Both the position numbers and the translations under genes were made by a program. 64,000 nucleotides of DNA from Patescibacteria group bacterium. GTDB taxonomy: Bacteria > Patescibacteriota > Patescibacteriia > JAHIZJ01. The notes beneath the pieces are model-generated. The model did no database searches. It saw nothing but the letters and a program-made list of their open reading frames with translations, and was not told the DNA's origin. This document shows positions 6,304 through 41,310 of this stretch, piece after piece. Where the stretch lies: positions 9,721 to 73,720 of the forward strand of contig JAQTMH010000001.1 of the NCBI GenBank assembly GCA_028714495.1, read 5' to 3'. Numbering within the stretch: the stretch's first letter is position 1; each line of letters begins with the position of its first letter.

Positions 6304-8541
6304 ATGGCGAAACAGCTTGTCATCGTGGAATCTCCCACCAAAGCTAAAACCATCTCCCGTTTCCTCGGGAAGGCTTTTATTATAAAATCATCAAACGGCC
6401 ATGTGCGCGATTTGCCCAGGAGCAAAATGGGCGTGGATATTGAGCATGATTTCGCACCGCAATACGTGATCCCGACGCGCAGCCGGAAAACCGTCACCGC
6501 CCTGAAAAAGGAGGCCAAAGCGGCCGATTCCATTCTCTTCGCGACAGACGAAGACCGCGAAGGCGAGGCCATATCCTGGCATTTAGCTCAATTGTTGGAA
6601 GTTCCCGATGAAAAAGTTAAGCGGATTACCTTTGAAGAAATTACCGAAGGCGCTATCAAAAAGGCGGTGGTGAATCCGCGCCGAATTGACACAAACTTGG
6701 TTAACGCCCAGCAAGCCCGCCGAATCCTAGACCGGCTTTTGGGCTATGAACTCTCTCCCTTTCTCTGGAAAAAGGTGGCCAAGGGCTTGTCAGCTGGCCG
6801 GGTGCAATCCGTCGCCTTGAGAATCATCGTCGAGCGGGAACAGGCTATCTTGGCTTTCAAACCGGTGGAGTATTGGCTAATCCAGGGAGAATTTGACAAG
6901 TCAGACCATTCAGAACCGCATATCACCGCCCGCCTCTTTCAATACAAAGACAAGCGCTTTGAGAAGCTTTCTCTCACCAGCAAGGACGCGGGAGAAAAGG
7001 TTGTCAAAGATTTGAAAGATGCCACCTTCGCGGTCCACAAGCTTGAGCAGAAAGAAATGAGGCGCTGGCCCTTGCCGCCTTTTACCACCTCGACTCTCCA
7101 GCAGGAAGCTAATCGCCGGTTTGGTTTCTCAACCCGGCAAACCATGTTTTTAGCTCAAACCCTTTACGAAGGTCTTCCTGTGGGCGATGAAGGCCCGGTC
7201 GGTCTGATTACTTACATGCGAACCGACTCGGTCAATCTGTCTGAAGAATTTCTATTAAAAGCCGTGAAATTTGTCAAAGATACCTACGGACCAGACTATA
7301 CCGGCTCCCAGCCTCGGCGCTATACCACTAAGCAGAGACTGGCCCAGGAAGCCCACGAGGCCATCCGGCCAACCGACGTCACCCGCACTCCGGAAAAAGT
7401 CAAACCATATCTTGATTCGGCTTCCTACCGCGTTTATTCCCTGATCTGGTCCCGGGCCGTGGCCTCGCAGATGACCGAGGCGGTTATGGATCAAACGACT
7501 ATCGATATAAAAAGTTCCAGCGATTATATCTTCCGGGCCACGGGCAGCGTCGTGAAATTCGACGGTTATCAAAAAGTTTACGTGACCAACCAAAAAGACG
7601 TGGTCCTGCCAAAAGTCGCGGCCAACGAACCCCTGAACCTCCTGGATTTAAAACACGAGCAGAAATTCACCGAACCGCCCAGCCGCTTTTCCGAGGCTGG
7701 CCTGGTCAAAGCCCTTGAGGAATACGGCATTGGCCGGCCGTCAACCTATTCCCCGACCATCTCAACCCTGGTCGAGAGAAAATACGTGGAAAAAGAGCGC
7801 CGCCGGCTAAAACCCACTGAAATCGGCATCCTCGTCACGGATTTGCTGGTCAAGCATTTTCCCCAGGTGGTTGATTATAAATTCACGGCTCAAATGGAAG
7901 AGGGGCTTGATTTAATCGCCGCCGGGAAAAAAGAATGGGTGCCTCTGCTCAAAGATTTTTATACGCCCTTCAAAGAGCATCTCACGAAAAAAGAGCTTGA
8001 GATTTCAAAGAAAGAACTGACCGAAACCGCCACTGACCAGGTTTGTGAAAAATGCGGCAAGCCCATGGTTATAAAAATGGGGCGCTTCGGCAAATTTATG
8101 GCCTGCTCCGGCTACCCCGAGTGTAAAAATACTAAGCAATTAAACGGCGACGGCACCGGTCCGGAAGCTGTCGAGCTGACCGATGAAAAATGTCCGGAGT
8201 GCGGCAAACCCTTGCAGCGGAAAGTCGGCCGCTTCGGCCCCTTCTTCGGCTGTACCGGCTACCCCGATTGTAAATTCATTAAAAATATCGAAAAGTCCAC
8301 CGGCGTTAAATGTTCCCAGTGCGGCGAGGGCGATTTAATTGAGAAACGAAGCTTCAAAGGCCGAACCTTTTATTCCTGCAACCAATATCCCAAATGCCGT
8401 TTTGCCCTGTGGTCAAAACCCACCGGCGAAAAATGCCCGGACTGCGGCTCACTCCTGGTCTACGCGAAAAAAGGCACTATTGCCTGCTCCAGCAAGGAGT
8501 GCAAATTTACCAAATCAGCCGACGAGATAAAAACGGGATAA
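6304..8541 (+). CDS. topA: DNA topoisomerase I with C-terminal Zn-ribbon repeats
   Basis: N-terminal Toprim (LVIVESPTKAKTI), catalytic region (YMRTDS) and several CxxC...CxxC zinc ribbons at the C-terminus. Confidence 0.9.
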   Translation: MAKQLVIVESPTKAKTISRFLGKAFIIKSSNGHVRDLPRSKMGVDIEHDFAPQYVIPTRSRKTVTALKKEAKAADSILFATDEDREGEAISWHLAQLLEVPDEKVKRITFEEITEGAIKKAVVNPRRIDTNLVNAQQARRILDRLLGYELSPFLWKKVAKGLSAGRVQSVALRIIVEREQAILAFKPVEYWLIQGEFDKSDHSEPHITARLFQYKDKRFEKLSLTSKDAGEKVVKDLKDATFAVHKLEQKEMRRWPLPPFTTSTLQQEANRRFGFSTRQTMFLAQTLYEGLPVGDEGPVGLITYMRTDSVNLSEEFLLKAVKFVKDTYGPDYTGSQPRRYTTKQRLAQEAHEAIRPTDVTRTPEKVKPYLDSASYRVYSLIWSRAVASQMTEAVMDQTTIDIKSSSDYIFRATGSVVKFDGYQKVYVTNQKDVVLPKVAANEPLNLLDLKHEQKFTEPPSRFSEAGLVKALEEYGIGRPSTYSPTISTLVERKYVEKERRRLKPTEIGILVTDLLVKHFPQVVDYKFTAQMEEGLDLIAAGKKEWVPLLKDFYTPFKEHLTKKELEISKKELTETATDQVCEKCGKPMVIKMGRFGKFMACSGYPECKNTKQLNGDGTGPEAVELTDEKCPECGKPLQRKVGRFGPFFGCTGYPDCKFIKNIEKSTGVKCSQCGEGDLIEKRSFKGRTFYSCNQYPKCRFALWSKPTGEKCPDCGSLLVYAKKGTIACSSKECKFTKSADEIKTG

Positions 8542-8786: not shown

Positions 8787-10196
8787 TTGAAATCACGATC
8801 CCTAGACCTCCAATCCCGCGTCGCGGGTGATGAAAGGAGTCTGTCCATGAAAACGGGCCTCATTACCTGCGCCGTCCTCGCCCTCGTACTCGCTGGCTGC
8901 GGCGAGAATGGAACCGAACCGGACGAGCACGGCACCATCATCTGCCAAACGTTGCCGGATAGCGCGGCCATCTGGCTTGACGGTATCGACACCGGCAAGG
9001 TGACGGATGCCGAGCTGACCGACATTGACTTTGGCGAACATGTGGTTACCTTCACGATCCACGGCTACCACGACTATGCTGAAACGGTCACAGTCAATGC
9101 TTCCCCCGTCATGGTGTACCGCAATTTCCCGGAACATAAACCGCCTGCCCTGCGCGTACTGTCAAATCCGCCCGGGGCAATCATCACGCTCAACGACACG
9201 ACACTGTCTGTTGTCACGCCGGCGGTCTTCCCCGACGTTCCGCTTGGCTGCAACGACCAATGCGACGTCTACCTGCGCTTGCCAGGCTATTACCCGCATT
9301 TTGAAACGGTACTGCTAGACAGCGAGAACACAATCACGGTCTCAGCCACGCTCGAGCCCTGCCCGGACATCGACCTTACGTTCGCGCGGAACGATACGCT
9401 CTATGCCATGAAAGCCGACGGCTTGACGCGGCGGGTGCTGGCGACCGGACTGGGCAATGGCGGCCTGTACCAGGTATCGCCCAACGGCCAGTATATCGCC
9501 TACTCGGCTATTACCGGTATCGTCGTCGCGAATCGGGACGGCAGCATCAGGGCTGAGATGCCAAGTCTGTACGGCGGAGATGACTACGCCTGGTCAAACT
9601 CAGGCGACCAGCTCGTCTTCGGCCAGTTCGTCGACGGCATCTATCTTTACGACGCGCCGTCGAACACTACCCGGGAGATTCTTGAGACGCGGGGCTTTCT
9701 CTACGACCACAGCCCGACTTTCTCGCCCGGGGATTCATATGTCGCCTATGTCTATTACGCCGACGGGAACGACGCCGCCATCAAGGTGATGCGAGCCGAC
9801 GGAAGCGAAGCGCGCACGGTCTTCTCGCGGGCCAGAACCAAGTATGACGCGTCGTCGCTGCGACTTTGTTGGGCAGCTTCCAACGCGATCATCTGGACCA
9901 ACACCAGTGGCATCTACCGGGTGGATCCGAATGCCGGAACCAACGAAAAGGTGGTAGACGCCTACCTGACCTCTGTCGCCTATTCACCCGATCGGACGAA
10001 ATACGCGTTTATCGAGAGCGGTGACCAACACGGCCTGTACATCGGAACGGTCGGCCAGTGGGATCGCCGCCGCCTGCTGGACACCCACGCGGACGCGCCG
10101 CGCTGGCTGCCTGGGAATGACTGTCTTCAGTACTGGGGAGACGGCCATCTCAAGTTGATGTCCTCGGACGGCACCACGCACATCATTGCTCCATAG
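8787..10196 (+). CDS. Secreted lipoprotein with PEGA-like domains and a TolB-like beta-propeller region
   Basis: The true start is probably the internal Met near 8847 (MKTGLITCAVLALVLAGCG lipobox). Two PEGA-like segments and repeated YSPD/beta-propeller-like motifs. About 60% GC. Confidence 0.55.
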   Translation: MKSRSLDLQSRVAGDERSLSMKTGLITCAVLALVLAGCGENGTEPDEHGTIICQTLPDSAAIWLDGIDTGKVTDAELTDIDFGEHVVTFTIHGYHDYAETVTVNASPVMVYRNFPEHKPPALRVLSNPPGAIITLNDTTLSVVTPAVFPDVPLGCNDQCDVYLRLPGYYPHFETVLLDSENTITVSATLEPCPDIDLTFARNDTLYAMKADGLTRRVLATGLGNGGLYQVSPNGQYIAYSAITGIVVANRDGSIRAEMPSLYGGDDYAWSNSGDQLVFGQFVDGIYLYDAPSNTTREILETRGFLYDHSPTFSPGDSYVAYVYYADGNDAAIKVMRADGSEARTVFSRARTKYDASSLRLCWAASNAIIWTNTSGIYRVDPNAGTNEKVVDAYLTSVAYSPDRTKYAFIESGDQHGLYIGTVGQWDRRRLLDTHADAPRWLPGNDCLQYWGDGHLKLMSSDGTTHIIAP

Positions 10197-10808: not shown

Positions 10809-10914
10809 AATACAGAAAAATGATGCCCTGCTTCAGACGGAATTTAGAATATCCTAATAAACAAAAAGGATGAAGATATATTGCTCATTGTTCTAGCTTG
10901 TACAAATCTTTTGT

Positions 10915-11035
10915 CAAAACCCACCGGCGAAAAATGCCCGGACTGCGGCTCACTCCTGGTCTACGCGAAAAAAGGCACCATCGCCTGCTCCAGCAAGGAG
11001 TGCAAATTCACCAAATCAGCCGACGAGATAAAATA
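10915..11035 (+). repeat. Duplicate of the topA 3' end (right-hand direct repeat)
   Basis: About 121 nt nearly identical to 8413-8541. Three substitutions, all synonymous in the topA frame, and a different terminal codon context. Confidence 0.85.
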
Positions 11036-11097
11036 ACCAGGATATAAAAAATCGCTTCATTTCTAAAATGAGGTATTTTATTGGTGTATTTGTTTAT

Positions 11098-12168
11098 TTA
11101 TTCTAGAACTGACTTTTCAAATTCGCATATTCCGAATATTTTCTCAAATTCGGTTGTGGTTTTTATCAGCTTTCCATGAGGGAAAATATTTCGCAAGAGC
11201 GGTTTATTTTTAATTCTGGATATCATTTCATCGGTCGGCCGCCAATCAATCCCCGCCTGATCAAATAACATTTTCAGCTGGTAACACTCCTGTTTCATTA
11301 CTAATGATTTCAAATCTTCAAAATCCAGTTGGCGGATCTCTTTATATATTTCAGTGGCTTTGAAGGAAAATTCGTCAATAAGATTATCGATGGTTATCGC
11401 ATCCAAAGGTTTTTTATCCGCAGATACGGCAAATTTTTTCATGCCCTCAACCGGGCTTAGCCCGTGAGAAATCGTATGGCAGCCGACAAAGGATATTTCC
11501 AATTCCACGCCCGAATAAACGGTATAAATGATAATTTCTTTTGCGCTCGCCAAATATCTTTTTGGCCACAACTCTTTTGGTCGGAGATTGGGAAAATGAC
11601 GGATTAAAAATATCTGTTTAGATTCTAAGTGATAAGGTCCATAAGCGTCCCAGCCGAGATCAGTAACCAAATCATTATAGAGACCATGGACAAACGAACC
11701 AACCGCGGTTATTAGTCGTCCAATTTTTCTGGCATATTGAATATCGGCTTTATTCCATTTAATATTCTTTATCAATCCATCAATCTCTGATTTTGTCTGA
11801 AACGGATTTGATTTAAGAGCGAATGGATCGTCCGGGCAGCTCTCCTTGAGCAGACGCGCGAAAAAATTCGCGACTAACTTGTAATCCTTCAGATAATACT
11901 CTTTATTTTCTGCGTGACTGGCATGATAAGAGGATATCAGCTTCATGAGAATCGCGCGCATGTTTGAAGGCGGCGGCAGTATTTCTCTAATCTCATTAAA
12001 ATGTCTTGATTCTAAGTCCAATTTTGTGATCGCCTGCGAGATGCGGGCGATCCACAGGTCATACCAAAGAGGGAAGAAATGATAAAAATCAAGCGGTTGA
12101 AACCCCTCTAATACCTGCCCCTTGAGCAGGTTTGAGGCGGATCTTGAAAATTCTTTAACCCAGGTCAT
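11098..12168 (-). CDS. Hypothetical protein (356 aa), overlapped by the upstream PEP-utilizer domain gene
   Basis: Start overlaps the preceding gene by 14 nt. No recognisable motif. Possibly the C-terminal partner of a split or permuted protein. Confidence 0.5.
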   Translation of the reverse strand: MTWVKEFSRSASNLLKGQVLEGFQPLDFYHFFPLWYDLWIARISQAITKLDLESRHFNEIREILPPPSNMRAILMKLISSYHASHAENKEYYLKDYKLVANFFARLLKESCPDDPFALKSNPFQTKSEIDGLIKNIKWNKADIQYARKIGRLITAVGSFVHGLYNDLVTDLGWDAYGPYHLESKQIFLIRHFPNLRPKELWPKRYLASAKEIIIYTVYSGVELEISFVGCHTISHGLSPVEGMKKFAVSADKKPLDAITIDNLIDEFSFKATEIYKEIRQLDFEDLKSLVMKQECYQLKMLFDQAGIDWRPTDEMISRIKNKPLLRNIFPHGKLIKTTTEFEKIFGICEFEKSVLE

Positions 12169-12484
12169 ATATTTCTCCTTTTTGGCCGTCGACCCGGATG
12201 CGCCTGCCGTTTTTTATTTTTTCGGTTGCCTTTTTCGTATTAACAATACAGGGAATTCCCATTTCGCGACTGAGTATTGCCGGATGCGAAGTAATCCCCC
12301 CGATGTCCGTAATAATTGCCGCGGCTTTTATCATCGCGGTCACCATGGTGGGGTCGGTAATGGCGGCTACCAAAACATCGCCCTCCTTGAATGAAGACGG
12401 GTCGTCCCCGGAATGAAATATCCTGGCTGCGCCCTCGGCTATTCCCGGGCTGGCGCCTATGCCTTTTAGCAATATTTTTTTCAT
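12155..12484 (-). CDS. PEP-utilizing enzyme mobile (phosphohistidine swivel) domain protein
   Basis: GGITSHPAILSREMGIPCIV matches the PEP-utilizers His-domain signature (GG-x-TSHAAI-x-RE-x-G-x-P). Confidence 0.7.
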   Translation of the reverse strand: MKKILLKGIGASPGIAEGAARIFHSGDDPSSFKEGDVLVAAITDPTMVTAMIKAAAIITDIGGITSHPAILSREMGIPCIVNTKKATEKIKNGRRIRVDGQKGEIYDLG

Positions 12485-12557
12485 GTTGTAGAATAATCAG
12501 ATATTTCGTCTAACGTTCGCGTCTCATGCGCTGTCCGCCTCCGTTTGTCAAATACGT

Positions 12558-12962
12558 TTAAATATTGTCCAAATTTCCGTGTAGCACTACCGAATCTACC
12601 GCGATAAGTTCTTCATAGTGCGGATGGTCTTCGTGTATCGGATTAAGTAAAAATATTTTCTTTTGAAGAAAGATGGCAACAGATAGTTCCATTAAAGTAT
12701 TTGACCCAAAGTAACCCTTAATACCCTTCTTCTCGTGGTTTATTATTAATATGGCGTCGGAACTTTCGATCCTTTTGAAATGAAACTTGGTCCAAACAGG
12801 TTTCATTGCTAACAAATTTTCACGGCCATTATTTTTCTGATACCACTCCTCGGTAACTAATGGATCTGGAACATAAATCTCATGGCCTTTTTTCTTTAAA
12901 TGTTCAGCAGCCTTGCCCATTTCTTCCGCAAAGGTGGCACTTCCACATATTGTAATAATCAT
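12558..12962 (-). CDS. Nucleoside 2-deoxyribosyltransferase-like protein
   Basis: Small Rossmann-like protein (MIITICGS...GSNTLMELSVA) with a conserved Glu in a G-T-x-x-E-l context. Family assignment is tentative. Confidence 0.4.
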   Translation of the reverse strand: MIITICGSATFAEEMGKAAEHLKKKGHEIYVPDPLVTEEWYQKNNGRENLLAMKPVWTKFHFKRIESSDAILIINHEKKGIKGYFGSNTLMELSVAIFLQKKIFLLNPIHEDHPHYEELIAVDSVVLHGNLDNI

Positions 12963-12987
12963 AGAATTGAAAATATGTTGTGCGCTG

Positions 12988-13365
12988 TTAGATATATTTT
13001 CTGCAATTTTTGCTGCCGCAATCGCACTTAAAGTGCAGCTGTATATCGGCTACCGAGTAATCTGATGTGATTTCCTCGCCTTTTTTAATATCTTTGATCG
13101 CCACATCGCAGTTATTCCCTACTTTGGTATTTGGATCGCAAGAGTGATTTACAAATCGCTCAGGCTTTTGTTGCAGCAGGAATTCACCAGGCGTGTAGTG
13201 TGAGACATGGTGCCGTTCAGACTCAGGCAGCCTATCCACTTCTTCTTTTGTCAAAACCTTTTTAGATTTCCATTTCAACACTACTTCACCGCGTTTGAAA
13301 TTTCGTATGGCAAAAACCCCCTTCTTATTGAGTTTCGATTTTTTTACAACAATATCTTTTGACAT
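12988..13365 (-). CDS. SET-domain protein-lysine methyltransferase with post-SET Cys cluster
   Basis: GVFAIRNFKRGEVV (GxG region), NHSCDPN (NHSCxPN motif), EEITSDY (ELxxDY) and a C-terminal CDCGSKNC post-SET cluster. Confidence 0.8.
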   Translation of the reverse strand: MSKDIVVKKSKLNKKGVFAIRNFKRGEVVLKWKSKKVLTKEEVDRLPESERHHVSHYTPGEFLLQQKPERFVNHSCDPNTKVGNNCDVAIKDIKKGEEITSDYSVADIQLHFKCDCGSKNCRKYI

Positions 13366-13408
13366 AAGAAATGAGGAATGGTGTATAACATTTGTGTCTC
13401 ATGCGCTG

Positions 13409-13870
13409 TTAAGTTATTCCTAGCTGTTTATCTAATGGGGGATTTGAAAAATATACACGTACCGCAGTACCAGGTTCCATATATTCTATCATCTCAAAGT
13501 TGCCTTTATCGATTAGTGAAAAGCCCTTTTGATTAAGATGTGCCTTTTTGAATTCATCATAGTTAGACAGGGTGAAATCAGCATCACCCCGCTCAGGCCT
13601 GGTGGGATCAGGTTTGCGTATTTTAAGCAACTGTAGGTTCCCGGCCACAGTCGGTAAAGGTGCAATTTGAAAAAGAGGACCGGTTTTTGTTTCTTGGACC
13701 ACCTTTCCTAACTGCCCAGCAAGATTAATAACTGAGGTATATTCCTCATCGTTTTGGCAAAAAATGCAAGCATAATTCACTGGAGCAGGGTCATTGACAA
13801 ACTTCCGTTTCAGTACTTCAGCCTGAGCGATAATATCTTGTATGGTATTCTTCAAATCATCTATGTTCAT
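13409..13870 (-). CDS. Hypothetical protein (153 aa)
   Basis: ORF with a CxxC (CIFCQ) near the N-terminus. No recognisable family. Confidence 0.4.
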   Translation of the reverse strand: MNIDDLKNTIQDIIAQAEVLKRKFVNDPAPVNYACIFCQNDEEYTSVINLAGQLGKVVQETKTGPLFQIAPLPTVAGNLQLLKIRKPDPTRPERGDADFTLSNYDEFKKAHLNQKGFSLIDKGNFEMIEYMEPGTAVRVYFSNPPLDKQLGIT

Positions 13871-14126
13871 ATCTTATGTTTAATAATCCTATGCGCCGAA
13901 GTGTATGGCTGATAACGTTTGCGTATATCTGATGTCGTGCGTAGCGGGATATAGGCGGAGGCTCGCCGGAGGCGAACCGGAGCCAGATATACGCTGTTAG
14001 ATGGTGTATGCTTTTCTTTTCTCGACGATGAGTCGGGCTACTTTTCTGTAATGAACAAATTTTATTTTCGTCTTGGCGAAAGGGCATAGGGGTCGGGGGT
14101 GAATGCCCCGTAGGCAAGACACGTTA

Positions 14127-15512
14127 TCATGGTAATTCTGGAAAAGTAACAATACCGCCTATCCCATTTTTTATTACATCGCGACACCTTTTTGCAAATT
14201 CTTCATTCTTTGTCTCTTTCACATATTTTGCAACACGGAAAAGGTCAGCAGTTCTTACTAAAACACAATTTGATGATTTCGCTGTATTAATACATTTCGT
14301 CGTAAATTGTTCTGCTCGTTCAGATGGTTTCGTGAGTCGAAAACCATTTCCGAATAAAATACCAACCGCGGGGTACTCCACCTCGCCTCTTTGCAGATCC
14401 TCATGAATATTTACAGCAAGTTGCCTAAATTTATCAATGTTTATCGCGGAAGTATCCTTGCCTTCGGCCTCACCAATAAATCGATCTTTTTCCGGCGAAG
14501 TGATAATGTGATCTAATTCAAGATTACCATCATTATAGTTTTCCGAAGAATACCCTAAAATTTCTAGGGCGGTAGTAATTGCATTCTCGAGTATCTTTCC
14601 TTTTTCAAAAAGTAAATCTCTTAATTTAATTTCCTCATCAATTTTTTTCAGCAGTTCGTTCTTTTGTGAGATGAGTTTTTCAATTTCCTTTGCTTTATTT
14701 TCAACACCTTTATGCAAAACCTCCACTTGTGCCAATCGAAAATCTATCTCGTTTGTCCAATCAGGAGGAGGAGTTACATCTCCGCCTTTTCGGAGCGCTT
14801 TATCAATATCAACTAGTGATTTGGCTAAAGATTTACCAAACTGAGTTGCCTTTTTCGTCCAGTATTTATTCCTTCCCTTCCCCTTAGATTCAGTAAATTT
14901 TTTCTCATCGTAACTTATATAAGGCAAAACGATCAGATTGCCACTTTTAACCTTGAAGATTGCTCCTAAAAGCTTTGTCTTATCCTTACCTGTAAAAAGA
15001 ATCTGCGCCTCAGGCGTGTTTTCTATATAGAGCTGATATCCTAAATATTCTTTAAACTTATCGTAAAAATCACTAACTATTGGGTTTCCAGAAAATGTAA
15101 CGTTTTTTCCGGAGGCGGATACTAATGTTCCGATACTGATTGGTAAAAAATCATAGTTAGTTTTCGTATATGTACTGTGTAAATTTTCGCCTTTCCTGGG
15201 GTGTGATACTCCAGATGAAAGCATCTGAGTTTTTTCTTTGGACAGAATGATAAAAACACTTTTTCCAGATTGTAAAAAATCTGCTATTTCTTTTTTGAGA
15301 TGAGAAATTTTTTCCTCATATTCACGTGATGTTGGAGCATTGTAGCAACCTCCTCCTGACGAAAATTCGACCCAACTCCCTCTTGGATATAGTTCTTCTG
15401 GTGAAATCAATAATATATCAGCGTCCATCAGGGACACATCATCATAAAAATCAATATAACTTTCATCCAATGTTGGTATTGTATACCCGATTGTGAAAAT
15501 CAGTTTTTCCAT
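14127..15512 (-). CDS. Hypothetical protein (461 aa) with central coiled coil
   Basis: Long Lys/Glu-rich coiled-coil segment (KEIEKLISQKNELLKKIDEEIKLRDLLFEKGK). The C-terminal region has a D...E-x-K-like arrangement (LELDHII...GEAEGKD) faintly reminiscent of PD-(D/E)xK nucleases. Unverified. Confidence 0.45.
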   Translation of the reverse strand: MEKLIFTIGYTIPTLDESYIDFYDDVSLMDADILLISPEELYPRGSWVEFSSGGGCYNAPTSREYEEKISHLKKEIADFLQSGKSVFIILSKEKTQMLSSGVSHPRKGENLHSTYTKTNYDFLPISIGTLVSASGKNVTFSGNPIVSDFYDKFKEYLGYQLYIENTPEAQILFTGKDKTKLLGAIFKVKSGNLIVLPYISYDEKKFTESKGKGRNKYWTKKATQFGKSLAKSLVDIDKALRKGGDVTPPPDWTNEIDFRLAQVEVLHKGVENKAKEIEKLISQKNELLKKIDEEIKLRDLLFEKGKILENAITTALEILGYSSENYNDGNLELDHIITSPEKDRFIGEAEGKDTSAINIDKFRQLAVNIHEDLQRGEVEYPAVGILFGNGFRLTKPSERAEQFTTKCINTAKSSNCVLVRTADLFRVAKYVKETKNEEFAKRCRDVIKNGIGGIVTFPELP

Positions 15513-15735
15513 AGTTGAAAATAATCCTTTTCGAGGTGTAGCTGGGAAAGCACCATAGCCCCCCCTTTAAAAAATTCGAAAATAAAATTTGTTCATTGCA
15601 GATAAAGTATAGGCGTCAGCCGTGAAAAGAAAAGCATATGCCATATAACTCGTTTTTATGCGAATAAAGTGTGTGATATACCCCAATTATTGCATATTCT
15701 ACGAAATATGGCTAATTATCGCCATAAGTGGATAT

Positions 15736-29400: not shown

Positions 29401-31176
29401 TTAAAAGTGTATTACCTGCCCAGGTCTAAGATGCCGGTCGCCCCTTGATTGGGTTTGACCCCCGGGCCTTCTCGGAAATCGGGGTTGCTGATTTTGGGGC
29501 TTCCGGAAGTTTTTAAAAGACATCGGCTCCCGAGTTAAAGCCTCTTTGAGGCTGATCGGCGTCGGGATTGATGATGCTTCTTCGACAATCTTCAAATCCT
29601 TTTCTACCGGCGCTGCTTTGGCTTCCTTTTTTCTTTCGGCTGGCGCGTTTTGATCACCGGCCATAGCCTGCAGAAAATTAATTCCTTCTCTATTCTTGTC
29701 TGGCGCTGTCTCGCGCGGCTTGACCTGCCGTGTTTCAGGCCTCGGACTAACTTTCCCTCGACCCTGCTCGGGATAAGCAGTCGGGGCATTTCTCTCAACC
29801 TTGCCCTGAAATACCATTTTCTCGATTTTTTCTTTTTCTTCGCGCCGCTGTCCATTTTCACCATTTTCCCCTTCCTCCATCTCAGCCATGCCGCTCCAGC
29901 GCATTATTTTATCCTCAACTACCGCCCGAGGCGTGGCATAACGCTCTCGCGAAACCCGGATGATCTTCTCGAGATTTCCCTCCTTAGCTCGGCTGTGAAG
30001 CGGGGGCAGGCCATGAGCTGAGAATGGCTCTGAAGCCACTCCGTCAATCATCAGCTTGAGATACATCTCAAATTTGGTCAGGTTTACCAGATCATTCTGC
30101 ATGAAAACGGGTTCAAATTCTTTTTCGAGATATTCCGCGTCAGTCGCGCCAACCCGGAAAGCCACAATTGTGCCGACATTGCCAAAAACCGCCGCCTGGA
30201 CTTCCTCGTCAAGCTGTTCAATGTACTGGTGGGCGATAATCAGGTCAAGGCGGTATTTCCGGGCTTCAGACAAGATATTGGCAAAACTCTCAGTGGCAAA
30301 ATTCTGAAACTCATCAACGTAAAGAAAGAAGTCGCGCCGTTCCTCCTCCGGAATGTCAACCCGGCTCATGGCCGCCAGCTGTAATTTCGTGATCATCATA
30401 GCGCCAAGTAAAGCCGCGTTATCCTCACCGATCCGGCCTTTAGATAGATTCATAATCAATATTTTCCCGGTATCCATGATTTCCCGCATATCGACTGAAC
30501 TCTTGGTTTGACCCACGATGTTGCGAATCACCGAACTGGATAAAAACTGGCCGACTTTGTTTTGGATTGGCGAAATCGCCTCGGTTCGGAATTGATTGCC
30601 ATAAGCCGCGTACTCCTCAAGCCAAAAGGTTCTCAAAATCGGGTCGTTAATTTTTGACACGACTTTTTTTCGATATTTGTTATCAACCAGTAGCCGGGTA
30701 ATGCCCAAGAGAGTTGAGCCCGGGTATTCCAAAAGGGATAGAACGGTATTGCGGAGTACGTATTCGAGACGCGGGCCCCAGGAATCAGCCCAAATTTTCT
30801 TGAAAACTCCCACTAGACCGGAGGCCACCAGGTGACGGTGGACTGGATTGACTGATTCGAGAACATTGAAGGCAATCGGGTAGTCAATATCGGCCGGATT
30901 GAAATATATCACGTCGTTGATCCGATCGGCTGGAATGTAATCCAATATTTCCTCGGCCAAATCACCGTGAGGATCAACCAGCGCCACGCCCCGGCCAGCC
31001 GTGATATCAGCCACGATCATCTGTTGCAATAGCGTGGTCTTGCCCATGCCGGTTTTACCGATGACATACATATGCCGGCGCCGGTCATCTAATTTAATGC
31101 CAAAACTCCTCCGCTGATTACGGAAATTTGTCTGGGCAAATAGAGCAATGTCTTTGTTGTCGGTGTCGTCGGGCAT
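29401..31176 (-). CDS. VirD4/TraG/FtsK-superfamily P-loop ATPase (T4SS coupling-protein-like) with charged low-complexity C-terminal tail
   Basis: Walker A YVIGKTGMGKTTLL, Walker B FLYVDEFQNF, IIAHQYIEQL. No N-terminal TM segments. The last ~190 aa are E/K/R/P-rich. Confidence 0.6.
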   Translation of the reverse strand: MPDDTDNKDIALFAQTNFRNQRRSFGIKLDDRRRHMYVIGKTGMGKTTLLQQMIVADITAGRGVALVDPHGDLAEEILDYIPADRINDVIYFNPADIDYPIAFNVLESVNPVHRHLVASGLVGVFKKIWADSWGPRLEYVLRNTVLSLLEYPGSTLLGITRLLVDNKYRKKVVSKINDPILRTFWLEEYAAYGNQFRTEAISPIQNKVGQFLSSSVIRNIVGQTKSSVDMREIMDTGKILIMNLSKGRIGEDNAALLGAMMITKLQLAAMSRVDIPEEERRDFFLYVDEFQNFATESFANILSEARKYRLDLIIAHQYIEQLDEEVQAAVFGNVGTIVAFRVGATDAEYLEKEFEPVFMQNDLVNLTKFEMYLKLMIDGVASEPFSAHGLPPLHSRAKEGNLEKIIRVSRERYATPRAVVEDKIMRWSGMAEMEEGENGENGQRREEKEKIEKMVFQGKVERNAPTAYPEQGRGKVSPRPETRQVKPRETAPDKNREGINFLQAMAGDQNAPAERKKEAKAAPVEKDLKIVEEASSIPTPISLKEALTREPMSFKNFRKPQNQQPRFPRRPGGQTQSRGDRHLRPGQVIHF

Positions 31177-32636: not shown

Positions 32637-33797
32637 TTAGCTGTTTGTTTTTTGAGTATCGGCCTCTTTCGACGATCCTGGCGTCTGTGCAATAGTATAA
32701 CGACCGTCAGATTGTTTGGTAAATCTCTTTTGATCAGTCAGGGCGAGATGAATGGTATTTCGTTTTACCATCCGCTGGGCTAGAACACCTTTGACAATCT
32801 CATCGCGAGTCAGCGACTGATTGGCTCGCTTCAGAACCTCAACGATAACATCGGCCACGACGCCCGGTTTATAGCCCCACTCTTTCAAAGCATAGATGCC
32901 CCGACCGACTAAGACATATCGGTCGTTAAGAATTAATTCGTTGTGAACCGTCGGCGGGTAGGCTTGACGATTATCAAAATGAATTTTGTTTATTCTTTCG
33001 GCAATCTGAGTGAAATGCATCGGTTTGCCTTCTTTCTTGAGCACCAGGTAAATTTTGTCATTCATGCGGCGCGGCACTATCGTCCCCCATTCGGTCAAAC
33101 CGTATTCGCCGAAAGGATTCCGACTGACTTTTTGGCTCATGGTCAGATAACCGACAATTGTCTGATCGCTTATGTCCGAATCCGTGTTTGGATCTTTAAC
33201 CGAATGGGCCGTCTGAAAAGCCTGGATGAAATCAGATTCGGAGAGGGGCTGGTTCTTGCTTTTGATCAGATTGATTAATTTATCAATGACCCTTTTTACC
33301 TTCTCCAGCGATACTGTCGGTAAATACCACGAAGAACGGAAATAGTCGTTAGCTGGCTGGCTTACGAAACGATCGCTTAAAAGCTGCGAAATGATGAATG
33401 ACACTGATTGCCGGCTGATCGGTGTATCAGTGGAGAATTCAAAAAGCTCTTCCATTAGCCTCTCTTTTGACATAGCTCCGCCGTTTTGTTCGAGGACGGA
33501 TTGAATCGCGTGTTCAATCGGTTCAATCAAATTGGTAAAGTTTTTTAAACCCTTTGTTTTTTTAATGGCCGTGCTCTCGATTTGACGGATCCGTTCTCTG
33601 GTTAGATTATAAAACTTCCCGATTTCCTCAAGGGTTTGCTTGGATTTACCATTTAAACCATAGCGGCGGCGCAGGATATCCTCCTCTTTATTGCTCAGCT
33701 GTTTAAGCAAAGAGGCGGCCACTTCGGGTGGGTTGAATTCCCTCAATTCCTGGCTCTGTTTGCTGGAAATTACTTTGTCGAGAATAGACTCTTCCAT
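32637..33797 (-). CDS. Sigma-70 region-4-like HTH domain protein (386 aa)
   Basis: ILRRRYGLNGKSKQTLEEIGKFYNLTRERIRQIESTAIKK is a near-textbook sigma-70 region 4 HTH. The rest of the protein is unassigned. Confidence 0.65.
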   Translation of the reverse strand: MEESILDKVISSKQSQELREFNPPEVAASLLKQLSNKEEDILRRRYGLNGKSKQTLEEIGKFYNLTRERIRQIESTAIKKTKGLKNFTNLIEPIEHAIQSVLEQNGGAMSKERLMEELFEFSTDTPISRQSVSFIISQLLSDRFVSQPANDYFRSSWYLPTVSLEKVKRVIDKLINLIKSKNQPLSESDFIQAFQTAHSVKDPNTDSDISDQTIVGYLTMSQKVSRNPFGEYGLTEWGTIVPRRMNDKIYLVLKKEGKPMHFTQIAERINKIHFDNRQAYPPTVHNELILNDRYVLVGRGIYALKEWGYKPGVVADVIVEVLKRANQSLTRDEIVKGVLAQRMVKRNTIHLALTDQKRFTKQSDGRYTIAQTPGSSKEADTQKTNS

Positions 33798-38362: not shown

Positions 38363-39805
38363 TCAGAGCTTTCTAATTACGCCCTCGCTTGCATCCACCT
38401 CCACCTTATCCCCATCCTTAAATACTTTAGTCGCGATTTTTGTGCCGACGATGCATGGTTTATGCAATTCCCGCGCCACAATGGCCGCGTGACAAGTAAT
38501 ACCGCCTTCGTCCGTGACAATCGCCGCGGCTCTCTTCATCACCGGAACGTATTCCGGCAGGGTCATGCCACAGATTAAAACATCCCCACCTTTTACTTTC
38601 CGGCTCGCCTCAGCCACGCCATTGCACACGCGCGCCCGCGCCCGAACAATGCCACTTGTCACACCCAAGCCCTTCAGCTCAGCTACCGCCCGCACAAATG
38701 AGCCAAGCGTCTGCTGCCGTTTTGTCAGAGCGCGACGGCCGCTTAAAATAGTTAAACGGGATTTATTGGCCAGGACAAACATTGTTTTCTTCCTCGTGAC
38801 TAATTCGCGCCGATTAAACTTCTGGCCGCGGAGAAATCGAAATATCTCATGGGAATAAAACCATTCGAGATCCTTGGCTGAAATGCCCAACTGACGCCCC
38901 GCCGCCCGCAGCCAGAGATGAAAGGCGTAGATGCTTCGGCATTGCATTTCTTTACGCCGATCGTGGTAATAGGCGTAACGGTCGAGAACCGCGAGCCAGT
39001 GCCTGATAGCGGATGAAAGTCTATATTTTTTAAGAAGCTTCTTGCGATTCTCGGCCGCGCGCTGAACCAGAGAAGCCATTTTGTTCAATTGCGTCTGACT
39101 GGGACGGTTTTTCCGGAAATGAACAGTCTTCTTAAGATAATCGTCTTCGCGGATAATCCTGGCCTCCTCCCAACCCAAAGGTGTCCACCAATAGCGCTCA
39201 TACAACCTATGAACATCAGCTGTTCTCAATCCCCGCCGAATCGCCTGATCCATGGCTAATTCTTCCTCGGCTACGTAAGTCTGATGAATTGGTGTGGCTA
39301 GTTGCTTGTAAATTTCGGCAAATTTTGCCTCTGACAAACCTTGGGGAAGCTCCTGACGCAGCCTGTCAATCAAGAATGTCTCAAAGACCGCATCCACCGC
39401 GTCAATGTCAAAATCAAGCCAGCCGTGCGCTGGTCCGGTTTCTTGAAAAAGCCACAGATTGAGCTTGATCAACTCGTCGTTGCTCAATCGGCGCAAATCC
39501 ATTTGTCGGACTTTCTCCGAGGCTTGATTCGCGTGCTCAATCAACTTTTGAATATCGCGAAAATGCCTGGCCTGACCGGATTTGGTTGAGCATTTATTTA
39601 TTATTTTTCTCCCCACGGTAAAAAGCTGCCGTTCATCCCAGCCCCAGGTCAAGTTTTGGCCATGCACGGTATAAAGCGCTCGGTCGGCGCGTGACCCGTT
39701 GTACCTAGTGCCGAACACCTGTACCCCCCGTAAGGCGATTTCAAGCCGATAAGCGGGGATGGTGCCGCGGGTGTAGGTAAACCATTTTTGTTTGATAGAA
39801 TTCAT
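38363..39805 (-). CDS. Protein with C-terminal PEP-utilizer phosphohistidine swivel domain (paralog A, 480 aa)
   Basis: C-terminal GGITCHAAIVARELHKPCIVGTKIATKVFKDGDKVEVDASEGVIRK. The N-terminal ~380 aa are helical and R/K-rich with no recognised motif. Confidence 0.7.
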   Translation of the reverse strand: MNSIKQKWFTYTRGTIPAYRLEIALRGVQVFGTRYNGSRADRALYTVHGQNLTWGWDERQLFTVGRKIINKCSTKSGQARHFRDIQKLIEHANQASEKVRQMDLRRLSNDELIKLNLWLFQETGPAHGWLDFDIDAVDAVFETFLIDRLRQELPQGLSEAKFAEIYKQLATPIHQTYVAEEELAMDQAIRRGLRTADVHRLYERYWWTPLGWEEARIIREDDYLKKTVHFRKNRPSQTQLNKMASLVQRAAENRKKLLKKYRLSSAIRHWLAVLDRYAYYHDRRKEMQCRSIYAFHLWLRAAGRQLGISAKDLEWFYSHEIFRFLRGQKFNRRELVTRKKTMFVLANKSRLTILSGRRALTKRQQTLGSFVRAVAELKGLGVTSGIVRARARVCNGVAEASRKVKGGDVLICGMTLPEYVPVMKRAAAIVTDEGGITCHAAIVARELHKPCIVGTKIATKVFKDGDKVEVDASEGVIRKL

Positions 39806-39827
39806 GATTGTAATAGTTAATCAGGCG

Positions 39828-39851
39828 CTATCATGCTATATAGCATGATAG
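39828..39851. repeat. REP-like perfect palindrome between paralogs A and B
   Basis: CTATCATGCTA-TA-TAGCATGATAG. Same CATGCTA-NN-TAGCATG core as 37567-37590. Confidence 0.6.
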
Positions 39852-39860
39852 CATTCACCA

Positions 39861-41309
39861 TTACCTTATCTTTTTTACTATTCCTTTTGTGGCATCAACC
39901 TCAACCCTATCTCCATCCTTCAAAACTTGAGTGGCGATCTTAGTGCCGATGATGCAGGGCTTGCCCATTTCGCGTGAGACAATTGACGCATGGCAGAGAA
40001 TCCCGCCTTCATCAGTGACAAAGGCGGCCGCTTTTTCCATGGCCGATATGAAATTCGGAAAAGTCATGACCGCCACCATGACATCGCCGCGTTTTACTCG
40101 CGATAAATCGCGCGTCGATCGCACGATTCGGACCGTGCCTTTCATCTTTCCTTTATAGGCAACCGTGCCGAAAAACTGTTTATTATCCGGGTGTGTAGAA
40201 AATATCATTCTAAGTCTTTTTTTCCATGTCCGGCCAGAAAAAACGTAATATTTTCCCTCGTGATACCATTCTCCATAAAACTGTTTCCGACGCCGTATTT
40301 CCTCCTTGGAAACAGGCGCCCGACCGGTTTTGGCCATGCGCATCAGTTCAATAAAAGTCAGATAGACAACATCATCTTCAGGAAAGCGCGCGCGTCGGGC
40401 AATTTCATAAAAAAGATTTCGGGCAAAATACCCGGCCGAATATATCGTATCAGAACGCCACGTCCGCAAATAGGCAAATTCTTTCGCTAGTGAAATACAT
40501 GTTTTGAGTATGCGCTGGCGAGTTATTTTTAATTGACGATTTAATGCCTGAGCTCTTTGAAATATCACCCGGCGCTGCGTCTCAATCCTTCGCAACTCAC
40601 GAGCGGGATTTTTCTTTTGCGCTCTAAGCTCTTTTAGACGTATCTCAATGTCTTTTTCGGTCCAGGCGTCATCCCACCAATATCCGCGGGCGCCGATCCA
40701 AGCGAATTTTTCCACATGTTTGGCAAGCCGCAGACGATATGCGGCACGATTCTTCCGAAACAGTTGGAGAAGTTTATACAATGAACGTTCCTCTGTCATA
40801 TGGCTGTTTTCCCTATCTGGAAAAGTTAGCGTGCGTAACCACTCTCTCTTTTTCTCTTCCGGCGCAGGCGGTAATTCATCTAAAATTACCTGGCTAAGGT
40901 ATGAATCTACCACCGCGAGCGGAGTCAGAAAATTATGAGCACATGAAGCGTAACGATGGTATTTCTTTGCATAATATACTAATCGTCTTCGCGGCCAACT
41001 CGAGCATTCCTGCTTTTCCAAGAAATGGGCTAAGCGATCAAGACGCGTAACATGACAGACAAGACGTTGCCTAAATCGACTCAAGAGCTTAACCCCGCCT
41101 CGCTGATATATTTCAGAGAGATTTGCCAGGCAGTGATCGCCGTAGATAAGCGGTCCCTCTGATAACCGAAAAACGTTTTTGACCGGCCAGTGGAATCCGG
41201 CGGCTCGGTAAAAATATTCCCCCGCGTTGTCCGTTATTGAGCGCATAAGCAGGGCTTCACGCCGCGAAACCAGTTGCTGCCACTCGATTTTTTTGATTTT
41301 GTCCAGCAT
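39861..41309 (-). CDS. Protein with C-terminal PEP-utilizer phosphohistidine swivel domain (paralog B, 482 aa)
   Basis: C-terminal GGILCHASIVSREMGKPCIIGTKIATQVLKDGDRVEVDATKGIVKK. Confidence 0.7.
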   Translation of the reverse strand: MLDKIKKIEWQQLVSRREALLMRSITDNAGEYFYRAAGFHWPVKNVFRLSEGPLIYGDHCLANLSEIYQRGGVKLLSRFRQRLVCHVTRLDRLAHFLEKQECSSWPRRRLVYYAKKYHRYASCAHNFLTPLAVVDSYLSQVILDELPPAPEEKKREWLRTLTFPDRENSHMTEERSLYKLLQLFRKNRAAYRLRLAKHVEKFAWIGARGYWWDDAWTEKDIEIRLKELRAQKKNPARELRRIETQRRVIFQRAQALNRQLKITRQRILKTCISLAKEFAYLRTWRSDTIYSAGYFARNLFYEIARRARFPEDDVVYLTFIELMRMAKTGRAPVSKEEIRRRKQFYGEWYHEGKYYVFSGRTWKKRLRMIFSTHPDNKQFFGTVAYKGKMKGTVRIVRSTRDLSRVKRGDVMVAVMTFPNFISAMEKAAAFVTDEGGILCHASIVSREMGKPCIIGTKIATQVLKDGDRVEVDATKGIVKKIR

Positions 41310-41310
41310 A

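Follow-up and report, generated by a model that had tools for sequence, protein, structure and literature searches.

Layout of the array and its genes

The window, the whole 64-kb stretch of DNA analysed here, carries an integron-like cassette array at 11098-15720 on its minus strand, adjoined by parAB. Six genes, all on the minus strand (11098-12168, 12155-12484, 12558-12962, 12988-13365, 13409-13870 and 14127-15512), are joined by junctions of -14, 73, 25, 43 and 256 nt, matching the tight same-strand pack of small genes described when the locus was first read from its sequence alone (the sequence-only reading). GC content is 35-44% in the array and 48-53% in the flanks. From head to tail, the features are:

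15686..15714, minus strand: promoter-like sequence directed into the array (TAGCCA, 17 nt, TG-c-AATAAT; from a consensus scan), possibly the equivalent of Pc
15646..15664, minus strand: attI-type site, TTCGCATAAAAACGA|GTTA, with 0 mismatches to the consensus TTCGYATAWAAACGAGTTA
15513..15649, minus strand: X', the leader of cassette 1, an inverted copy of X that forms an inverted repeat with 13996-14130
14127..15512, minus strand: cassette 1 cargo, a 461-aa protein combining a GATase1-like N-domain with a coiled coil and, C-terminally, a PD-(D/E)xK-like domain
13996..14130, minus strand: X, a 135-nt block abutting R'' of J4
13910..14002, minus strand: J4, an intact attC-type site of 93 nt, ATCTAAC-A-GCGTATATCTG...CAGATATACGC-AAAC-GTTATCA
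13409..13870, minus strand: cassette 2 cargo, a 153-aa protein with 1327 homologues
13383..13414, minus strand: J3, putative eroded attC, ACTTAAC-A-GCG-CATGAGA-CAC-AAAT-GTTATAC
12988..13365, minus strand: cassette 3 cargo, a 125-aa SET-domain protein (PF00856, E=2.8e-15)
12977..12993, minus strand: J2, putative eroded attC, left half only, ATCTAAC-A-GCGCACAAC, with R' gone
12558..12962, minus strand: cassette 4 cargo, a 134-aa nucleoside 2-deoxyribosyltransferase-like protein, so named from PF05014 in 26 of 41 homologues
12508..12538, minus strand: J1, putative eroded attC, GGCGGAC-A-GCG-CATGAGA-CGC-GAAC-GTTAGAC
11098..12484, minus strand: cassette 5 cargo, two overlapping genes encoding a 109-aa PEP-utilizers mobile domain and a 356-aa protein

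Pfam confirmed two functions that had been proposed without database searches, the SET domain and the PEP-utilizers mobile domain (PF00391, E=1.2e-26). The deoxyribosyltransferase-like call holds through the homologues, among which the Nuc_deoxyrib_tr family (PF05014) was found, but not through the 134-aa protein itself, which has no Pfam match; a homologue with 35% identity sits between attC sites in a complete array, L208. The 109-aa protein shares 46% identity with the C-terminal domain of a paralogue encoded at 38363-39805, and similarity to the PEP-domain paralogues is absent from the 356-aa protein. For the 461-aa protein, no match was found in Pfam, PADLOC or NCBIfam; its AF2 model has a pLDDT of 88, and Foldseek matched it weakly to FokI, NucS and HindIII. 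Its homologues (52-84% identity) come from diverse CPR lineages and lie in varied contexts, with D333, E347 and E349 invariant and K351 nearly so.

A recurring junction motif and one intact site

Copies of a motif had been noted at the junctions, and their positions proved right. GTCTCATGCGCTGT is exact at 12521-12534 and 13396-13409, with 0.36 matches expected even when 2 mismatches are allowed, and GCGCTGTTAGAT occurs at 12982-12993 (0 mismatches), 13991-14002 (1) and 13403-13414 (2). Some details needed correction: the copy at 12521-12536 is present but lacks the TTAGAT end, the GTCTAAC placed at 12507 lies at 12508-12514, and the second motif, TAACGTTYGCGT, is exact at 12511 and 13913 but has 3 mismatches in its third copy (13386, TAACATTTGTGT). 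Taken alone across the window, the loose 12-mer is not significant (8 matches vs. 4.5 expected, with 8 of 100 shuffles reaching 8). The signal is the clustering at four consecutive junctions and the fixed register. As had been observed, the upstream TAA stop is embedded in the motif in two cases, the SET gene (12988-12990) and the 153-aa gene (13409-13411), and it occupies the identical position in both. Stop codons inside R'' are common among integron cassettes.

J4, which lies in the longest junction, is the sole intact site of the window. It scored 71.7 bits with site model R1 and 66.6 bits (E=1.1e-11) with the independent model R2, built without J4, and it folds as single-stranded DNA with a z of -2.5. 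The 11 perfect pairs of its L stem are the 11-bp perfect inverted repeat, GCGTATATCTG/CAGATATACGC, that had been seen flanking a GC-rich hairpin. Across the 64-kb window, R1 and R2 found no further copy beyond the junction sites. Because only J4 passes the family models, the window by itself falls short of a CALIN, a cluster of attC sites lacking an integrase (IntegronFinder, PMC9024848), for which at least two attC sites without an integrase nearby are needed.

The recurring motif appears to be the residue of three attC sites of the form R''(YTAAC)-A-GCG...CGC-RAAC-R'(GTTA), with the hairpin interior lost. In the alignments of both models, J3 is an attC that lacks its interior (10.9 bits at E 4.3, 13.8 bits at E 1.7). 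J1 shares 75% identity with J3 over 40 nt and gave no match to either model at E<=10. J2 gave no match to the family models and has ACAGCGCACAAC in common with a truncated site behind a 153-aa homologue in locus L092. At 17-32 nt, J1-J3 are below the attC length range of about 57-141 nt, and J1 and J3 have no stable fold, in keeping with the earlier suspicion that the 25- and 43-nt junctions might be too short for an attC. A GCACAAC-type R'', like that in L092, can be fitted to J1-J3 as well, which makes it ambiguous exactly what they derive from.

A family of attC-like sites beside short recombinases

A scan of 120 metagenome loci returned at least 208 sites of the J4 family in at least 101 loci, and the family is abundant in groundwater-type metagenomes. 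No R1 match was found at E<=1 in about 85 ParB-anchored loci, mostly non-CPR, outside four array-bearing CPR contigs. All 54 multi-site loci carry every site on one strand. Sites are a median of 809 nt apart and 101 nt long (range 38-199 nt), and the longest ORF is co-oriented with the attC in 75 of 82 cassettes, giving arrays of co-oriented, mostly single-gene cassettes as in integrons. The sites are imperfect palindromes bounded by R'' and R' in which structure is conserved over sequence, with lengths that, J1-J3 apart, fit those of attC sites. Stem cells are paired in 94.5% of cases, compared with 22-38% in slid controls, and compensatory changes are seen at 10 of the 11 L-stem pairs. The ends read xxxTAAC in 153 and GTT in 199 of the 208 sites; among 152 sites, 117 have terminal 7-mers that complement each other at 5-7 positions, while the strict RYYYAAC/GTTRRRY consensus is found in 36-37 of 152 (about 24%). 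Model R1 found no match on the attC of aadA1 in R100. The L stem is continuous, with no extrahelical bases in the L box, and the sole conserved asymmetry is in the spacer, A on one side and AWAC on the other (1 vs. 4 nt). We infer that this spacer replaces extrahelical bases in strand choice.

In sixteen related loci, an IntI1 query that had been checked against R100 found a tyrosine recombinase resembling IntI1 (E 1e-19 to 1e-51), and in 15 of them the gene is adjacent and divergent, the canonical integron layout. The sequence-only reading had suggested looking for such an enzyme near the array, IntI-like and with the extra domain. None is encoded in the 64-kb window, and the recombinases of the related loci lack the IntI-specific domain: they are unusually short (~270 aa), missing what corresponds to IntI1 residues about 201-231 and 241-251. 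With TIGR02249 they scored 200-237 bits, below the cutoff of 265, the match being split into two stretches. With NF040815 (recomb_XerA_Arch) they scored 215-243 bits against a cutoff of 220, placing 6 of 8 tested recombinases above it. IntegronFinder requires the IntI C-terminal signature and thus would not call recombinases like these.

In nine related loci, the recombinase ORF has its 5' end 29-90 nt away from the attI consensus TTCGYATAWAAACGAGTTA. At up to 4 mismatches, 15646-15664 is the sole match to that consensus within the 64-kb window, and the crossover would fall at G|TT (15649|15648), as expected of an attI at an array head. This site also occurs without an adjacent recombinase in two other arrays, L090 and L092. 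In recombinase-bearing loci, a -10-like TAT(T/A)AT, often after TG, was seen by eye 25-35 nt upstream of the attI GTT. Leaders homologous to X' come after attI, or after an attC's R' end, in seven other loci (L195, L167, L213, L184, L144, L118 and L090), and an X block directly abuts an attC in 18. A Logan assembly graph has a branch inside X'.

The 153-aa cassette is present in three arrays, that of the window and those of two other genomes (L092 and L096), with different neighbours. Its homology starts near R' and stops at the stop codon, with the 5'UTR ATACACTTCGGCGC conserved. One homologue of its protein is labelled Aenigmatarchaeota. Cassette order is the same in two Logan assemblies.

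A probable decayed integron-like array

The region is very probably an integron-like cassette array, now decayed, in the chromosome of a Patescibacteria bacterium. The earlier proposal of a cassette array built by site-specific recombination, or what is left of one, with attC-like core sites gains support, because J4 belongs to an attC-like family found in same-strand arrays beside IntI-like recombinases, the attI consensus stands at the array head, and the 153-aa cassette is shared. It would be an integron-like variant, not a canonical integron, since the recombinases lack the IntI-specific domain and the L stem lacks extrahelical bases.

On the minus strand, the array head would comprise a Pc-like promoter followed by the attI-type site. 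Cassette 1, a nuclease-like 461-aa gene between the 135-nt inverted X' and X blocks, would be closed by the 93-nt attC-type hairpin. The four cassettes behind it (2-5) would have lost their attC hairpin interiors. What survives of each site would be its base: R'' (YTAAC) with a single A, 3 nt from either end of the L stem, the RAAC spacer, and R' (GTTA). By analogy with integrons, the recombinase encoded divergently beside attI in intact relatives would insert a cassette by recombining attI with an attC hairpin folded from a single strand, attC x attC recombination would excise one, and cassettes would be expressed from the promoter at attI; the strand-exchange chemistry is presumed on the same analogy. 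Because the window has no recombinase and their attC sites are eroded, cassettes 2-5 are effectively fixed. Only cassette 1, with attI and an intact attC, could still move, with the enzyme supplied in trans.

Of the alternatives, a Xer/dif-type system fares best, although we consider it improbable. The recombinase would then be the housekeeping Xer of the phylum, the "attI" a dif-like site by xer, and modules would accumulate there, as in IMEX or pdif modules. The XerA-type scores point this way, as do the missing IntI domain in all eight tested recombinases, the abundance of the recombinase family (>8000 homologues among the matches listed) and the attI-bearing arrays that lack an adjacent recombinase. 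There are also precedents: xerS adjoins difSL in streptococci, and Xer mediates integration of the folded CTX-phage hairpin. The sites themselves argue otherwise, being hairpins of 70-130 nt with conserved structure and not 28-bp duplex sites (two 11-bp arms and a 6-bp centre), and each array has one site orientation where pdif modules alternate. Single-gene-sized spacing and co-oriented ORFs are integron-like, and a position beside parAB would be unusual for a terminus neighbourhood.

It is very unlikely that the motif is a shared expression signal of a small-gene operon (a promoter, terminator, RNA-processing site or translational coupling) and no recombination scar at all. Its copies do lie 20-40 nt upstream of start codons, the short ones are unable to fold as attC, and cassette order is unchanged across the two samples. 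However, the motif occurs nowhere else in the window, whether in other intergenic regions or not, a consensus scan found neither sigma-70-like nor terminator features in it, stop codons fall within it in a fixed register, and its ends align to R''/R' in a family of structured sites, which mark mobile cassettes next to recombinases. Selfish palindromic repeats (REP- or MITE-like) piling up between genes without cassette movement deserve hardly any credence: the sites are palindromic, the X blocks are long inverted repeats and the assembly graph branches inside X', but the 64-kb window has no dispersed copies outside the array, none of the 54 multi-site arrays departs from a single orientation, a gene moves between arrays together with its 5'UTR (homology running from R' onward), and array heads carry a recombinase and attI.

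Comparison with known systems

The integron-like reading invites comparison with sedentary chromosomal integrons and CALINs (in the IntegronFinder sense, PMC9024848). Both have single-gene cassettes arrayed on one strand, sites that are imperfect palindromes with ...AAC/GTT... invariant at the ends and structure conserved over sequence, stop codons in R'', an attI with G|TT beside a divergent tyrosine recombinase, cargo that is defence-like or has no assigned role, and many arrays without a recombinase. The family differs in its ~270-aa recombinase without the IntI-specific domain, in a fully paired L stem with the 1-vs-4-nt spacer in place of extrahelical bases, in R-L spacers shorter than those of the aadA1 attC, in a site model that misses a class 1 attC, and in the 135-nt terminal inverted blocks of some cassettes. 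Archaeal integrons (Ghaly et al., 2022, PMC9668308) likewise come from MAGs of uncultured lineages and are mostly CALINs. That study, in which detection was with IntegronFinder, proposed cross-domain cassette flow and does not mention Patescibacteria.

With the single-recombinase Xer systems (XerA, XerS, XerH) and IMEX, the family shares a short Xer-like enzyme encoded beside its own site and, as with the CTX-phage hairpin, a folded single-stranded substrate. Unlike them, it has long, uniformly oriented arrays of gene-sized cassettes, each with a hairpin, and a promoter at the head. The pdif modules of Acinetobacter plasmids are also small gene modules bounded by Xer-type recombinase sites. 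Those sites are 28-bp duplexes in alternating orientation, in contrast to the 93-101-nt hairpins in a single orientation seen here.

Implications

Integrons are a classic bacterial gene-capture device, and we found no paper that describes them in Patescibacteria. We see an even chance that the family represents a large Patescibacteria lineage of integron-like platforms, of which we found no description, with a short XerA/IntI-like recombinase and asymmetric-spacer hairpins, that is either an intermediate between Xer/dif and integrons or a housekeeping Xer doubling as cassette integrase. If so, tools requiring the IntI signature would score such platforms as integrase-less clusters only. The family bears on the origin of integrons from Xer-type recombinases and on their spread outside Proteobacteria, and the window is an entry point to it, with a defined attI, an attC model and a recombinase. 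Should the short recombinase, which has no IntI domain, indeed act on folded attC hairpins, the accepted need for that domain in reading hairpins would have to be revised. The lesson of the window itself is more modest: arrays may decay by hairpin deletion, leaving 20-30-nt scars and cassettes locked in place. If the short recombinase does act on such hairpins, it would also supply a concrete mechanism of gene flow for ultrasmall symbiotic bacteria with 1-Mb genomes, possibly one common to DPANN archaea.

The array and its surroundings

Six minus-strand genes make up the array, with successive gaps of -14, 73, 25, 43 and 256 nt:

11098-12168, minus, 356-aa gene, no direct match in Pfam, NCBIfam or PADLOC
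12155-12484, minus, 109-aa gene, PEP-utilizers domain (Pfam)
12558-12962, minus, 134-aa gene, no direct match in Pfam, NCBIfam or PADLOC
12988-13365, minus, 125-aa gene, SET domain (Pfam)
13409-13870, minus, 153-aa gene, no direct match in Pfam, NCBIfam or PADLOC
14127-15512, minus, 461-aa gene, no direct match in Pfam, NCBIfam or PADLOC

Pfam thus agrees with the PEP and SET identities assigned earlier by inspection. ParA, ParB and a TPR protein are the upstream neighbours of the array, and its opposite flank holds Mfd, DprA, TopA and a PEGA-domain protein. GC content is 35–44% in the array vs. 48–53% in the flanks. Synteny anchored on ParB yielded no close relative: the best ParB match among 185,579 species genomes, from a Candidatus Moraniibacteriota MAG, is 51% identical, and the other top matches are mostly from Patescibacteria. 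In NCBI, the 461-aa and 153-aa proteins are assigned to a MAG labelled 'Patescibacteria group bacterium'.

A second copy of the 3' end of topA (6304-8541) lies 2.4 kb downstream, next to the array, in the form of a 51-aa Zn-ribbon ORF (10881-11036). The direct repeat measures 121 bp (8412-8532 and 10913-11033, 97.5% identical), and a PEGA-domain gene of 60% GC (8787-10196) and an ORF of 109 aa are enclosed by the two copies. The arrangement resembles an insertion at the topA end that brought with it a replacement 3' end, and no integrase was seen at it. Farther along the window are a TrwB/TraG-like coupling-protein ATPase (29401-31176), a protein combining sigma-70 region 4 with a HARE-HTH domain (32637-33797), and a 3331-aa ORF (48222-58217) followed by a 960-aa ORF without a Pfam match.

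An intact attC-type site and its family

Homologues of the 153-aa protein occur in other Patescibacteria contigs, L092 (Falkowbacteria) and L096, within same-strand runs of small unrelated genes (NUDIX, HNH, Fic, HicA). Among the three loci, homology sets in near R', an outer end of the junction site, includes a conserved 5'UTR (ATACACTTCGGCGC) and reaches as far as the stop codon; the neighbours are not shared. Such a pattern would be expected of a mobile cassette. The junctions in L092 and L096 are well-formed 70–130-nt palindromes, xxxTAAC-AC-G(C/G)GATATCCG ... CGGATATC(G/C)C-GATAC-GTTAxxx. The long junction of the window, J4 (13910-14002), has the same architecture, ATCTAAC-A-GCGTATATCTG ... 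CAGATATACGC-AAAC-GTTATCA, and shares with them an asymmetric spacer of one versus four nucleotides.

A covariance model seeded with ten attC-type sites, R1, matched the window only at 13910-14002 (71.7 bits), with the 43-nt junction registering, at 10.9 bits (E=4.3), just as a copy stripped of its interior; over 93 loci its matches were confined to four array-bearing CPR contigs. Scanning metagenomes with the conserved L'-R' end (stem arm and outer site end), TCRGATATNNCGAWACGTTA, gave at least 120 loci, in 101 of which R1 found 208 sites. Sites in the metagenomic loci have a median length of 101 nt and a median spacing of 809 nt, their strand is uniform in all multi-site loci (54/54), and the longest ORF is co-oriented in 75 of 82 single-gene-size cassettes. 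In an alignment that was fitted to the model, 94.5% of stem cells are paired vs. 22–38% with the partner slid, and 10 of the 11 L-stem pairs show compensatory changes; when the seed sites were run freely through MAFFT and RNAalifold, 7/11 pairs covaried. A second model, R2, built from metagenomic sites alone with the window site left out, recovered J4 at 66.6 bits (E=1.1e-11) and gave the 43-nt junction a score of 13.8 bits (E=1.7). A tRNA-like origin of the J4 hairpin was rejected, ARAGORN and Rfam having returned nothing at J4.

The variable part of 59 of the 208 sites holds a small hairpin, always in cassette sense (L167:648-749, L173:6937-7037, L119:787-885, L120:11976-12062 and 55 other sites). 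Its loop, T(C/T)CGCT(A/T)(C/T)GCT(A/C)C, is conserved and its 5–7-bp stem covaries (tttgcc/ggcaaa, ttctgc/gcagaa, ttttac/gtaaaa). The loop motif also appears in the leader alignment of X', an inverted block described below. An accessory protein may bind the hairpin.

Probable scars at the short junctions

The recurring junction motif lies where the sequence-only reading had placed it: GTCTCATGCGCTGT has exact copies at 12521 and 13396, and GCGCTGTTAGAT occurs at 12982, 13991 and 13403 with 0, 1 and 2 mismatches, respectively. An accompanying motif, TAACGTTYGCGT, had been claimed in three copies, of which two are exact (12511 and 13913) but the third is degenerate. No convincing copies of these three sequences were found elsewhere in the 64-kb window. 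The embedding of stop codons in the motif also stands, with the TAA of the SET and 153-aa genes at the identical motif position. Three short elements are found:

12508-12538 (J1), gene sense, GGAC-A-GCG-CATGAGA-CGC-GAAC-GTTAGAC
12977-12993 (J2), gene sense, TAAC-A-GCG-CACAAC..., right half absent
13383-13414 (J3), gene sense, TAAC-A-GCG-CATGAGA-CAC-AAAT-GTTATAC

What survives in them is R'' (the other outer site end), the A spacer, three bases from each end of the L stem, the RAAC spacer and R', apart from the right half in J2; 7 nt stand in place of the remaining L stem and the variable loop. No fold was found for J1–J3. Short 32-nt forms were not found in other loci, and the short motif is therefore specific to the window array; it gave 0 matches in a sequence scan of viral contigs. 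We read J1–J3 as the scars that deletions left of attC sites, all of a single type. Another register is possible, in which ACAGCGCA(C/T)(A/G)A(C/G) is aligned with the GCACAAC-type R'' after the 153-aa homologue in L092. Under either register J1–J3 are non-functional remnants.

An attI-type site and short recombinases

A phmmer search with IntI1 (query 100% identical to intI1 of R100) returned no recombinase in the window and strong matches in 16 metagenomic loci (E 1e-19 to 1e-51). In 15 of these 16 the recombinase gene lies upstream of all attC-type sites and is oriented divergently to them, which is the layout of an integron. The stretch that separates it from the first cassette contains a conserved sequence, TTCGYATAWAAACGA|GTTA, present with at most 4 mismatches in nine loci, 29–90 nt from the 5' end of the recombinase ORF. 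The window has a perfect match to this attI-type sequence at 15646-15664, immediately ahead of the 461-aa cassette, and a promoter-like site with an extended -10 just upstream of the match. Given this match and promoter-like site, the window array keeps its head; the recombinase gene is missing, and the TPR gene ends ~130 nt from the head. Cassette arrays headed by an attI-type site without an adjoining recombinase were also seen at L090:5847, L092:4351 (placed after the ATP synthase operon) and L017:123, so it may be common for arrays in these genomes to be served in trans.

The array-associated recombinases are ~270 aa long and 31–41% identical to IntI1, with the catalytic residues kept. They score 215–243 bits with NF040815 ('site-specific tyrosine recombinase/integron integrase', XerA type), six of eight lying above the NCBIfam cutoff of 220, and 200–237 bits, below the cutoff of 265, with the integron integrase model TIGR02249, to which the match breaks into two parts. 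Missing from them is the IntI-specific domain, the segment aligned with IntI1 residues ~201–231 and 241–251. An IntI-like recombinase with the extra domain, which the sequence-only reading had proposed to look for near the array, is thus found neither in the window nor among the recombinases of the related loci. Homologues number at least 8000, the close ones labelled Patescibacteria, Kuenenbacteria or Parcubacteria.

Inverted blocks around the 461-aa gene

The 461-aa gene is framed by a 135-nt block, X (13996-14130), which abuts R'' of J4, and its inverted copy, X' (15513-15649), which begins at the GTTA of attI. X adjoins attC in 18 loci, with X' placed 1.6–3.8 kb upstream, next after attI or after R' of the preceding attC; loci with X/X' include the window, L090, L092, L106, L116, L144, L167, L184, L195, L213 and others. 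The unit is therefore one of a class of cassettes that end in long inverted blocks, rather than a transposon. An IS or TIR transposon around the gene was rejected on the homologues in L084 and L087, which have neither flanking inverted repeats nor the motif, and on the repeats themselves, which are the cassette leader/trailer family X; 461-aa homologues outside arrays lack the X/X' blocks. In a circular X/X' cassette, the inverted blocks would extend the attC hairpin by >100 bp. RNAalifold gave no covariation in the X' leader, and we therefore claim no RNA structure for it. A sequence scan of viral contigs for the X core gave 0 matches. Repeated X copies could account for a branch inside X' in the Logan assembly graph. 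The X-bearing subset of cassettes carries methyltransferase- or nuclease-type cargo.

Cargo proteins

Searches of the cargo proteins by sequence in PADLOC, NCBIfam and PDB returned nothing informative. The 461-aa protein gives a confident model (pLDDT 88) with a weak resemblance to a GATase1-like domain and, after it, to a PD-(D/E)xK nuclease of the type of FokI, NucS or HindIII. In its family D333, E347 and E349 do not vary, and K351 hardly does. An 83%-identical homologue (L084:2007-7404) stands 3 nt after an N6_N4 methyltransferase and ResIII helicase, beside AbiEi/AbiEii. Its position after these genes suggests a defence role: the family would provide the nuclease of a restriction- or defence-type module, and would also move on its own. 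In the 134-aa family, 26 of 41 members match nucleoside 2-deoxyribosyltransferase; the single-sequence AlphaFold model of the protein has a pLDDT of 39, too low for use. A 58%-identical homologue of the 153-aa protein (P0218) is labelled Candidatus Aenigmatarchaeota, a possible sign of cassettes shared by Patescibacteria and DPANN archaea, or else of misbinning.

Three tandem paralogues on the minus strand (38363-42825; 480, 482 and 504 aa), uncharacterised in their N-terminal parts, each carry a terminal PEP-utilizers mobile domain, and the stand-alone 109-aa domain of the array is 46% identical to one of them. That the PEP-domain and 356-aa genes are a broken copy of these paralogues was rejected, as the similarity is in the PEP domain only.

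Relation to canonical integrons

The original observation is confirmed, and its interpretation as a recombination cassette array or remnant is supported. The window holds an eroded integron-like array, with an attI-type site, one intact attC-type site that is predicted from its sequence to be live, and three scars. Two defining features of canonical integrons are absent, the IntI domain and the extrahelical bases, which the L stem of the family sites lacks in contrast to canonical attC. R1 gives no match on the class 1 attC of aadA1. The integron core consensus in its strict form, RYYYAAC/GTTRRRY, occurs in only ~24% of family sites, although TAAC/GTTA is nearly invariant. In the literature we found no paper treating integrons in Patescibacteria or CPR as its subject, and no description of this site family with the short recombinase. 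As far as can be inferred, the system works like an integron. The site family and its short recombinase are common in Patescibacteria-type metagenomes.
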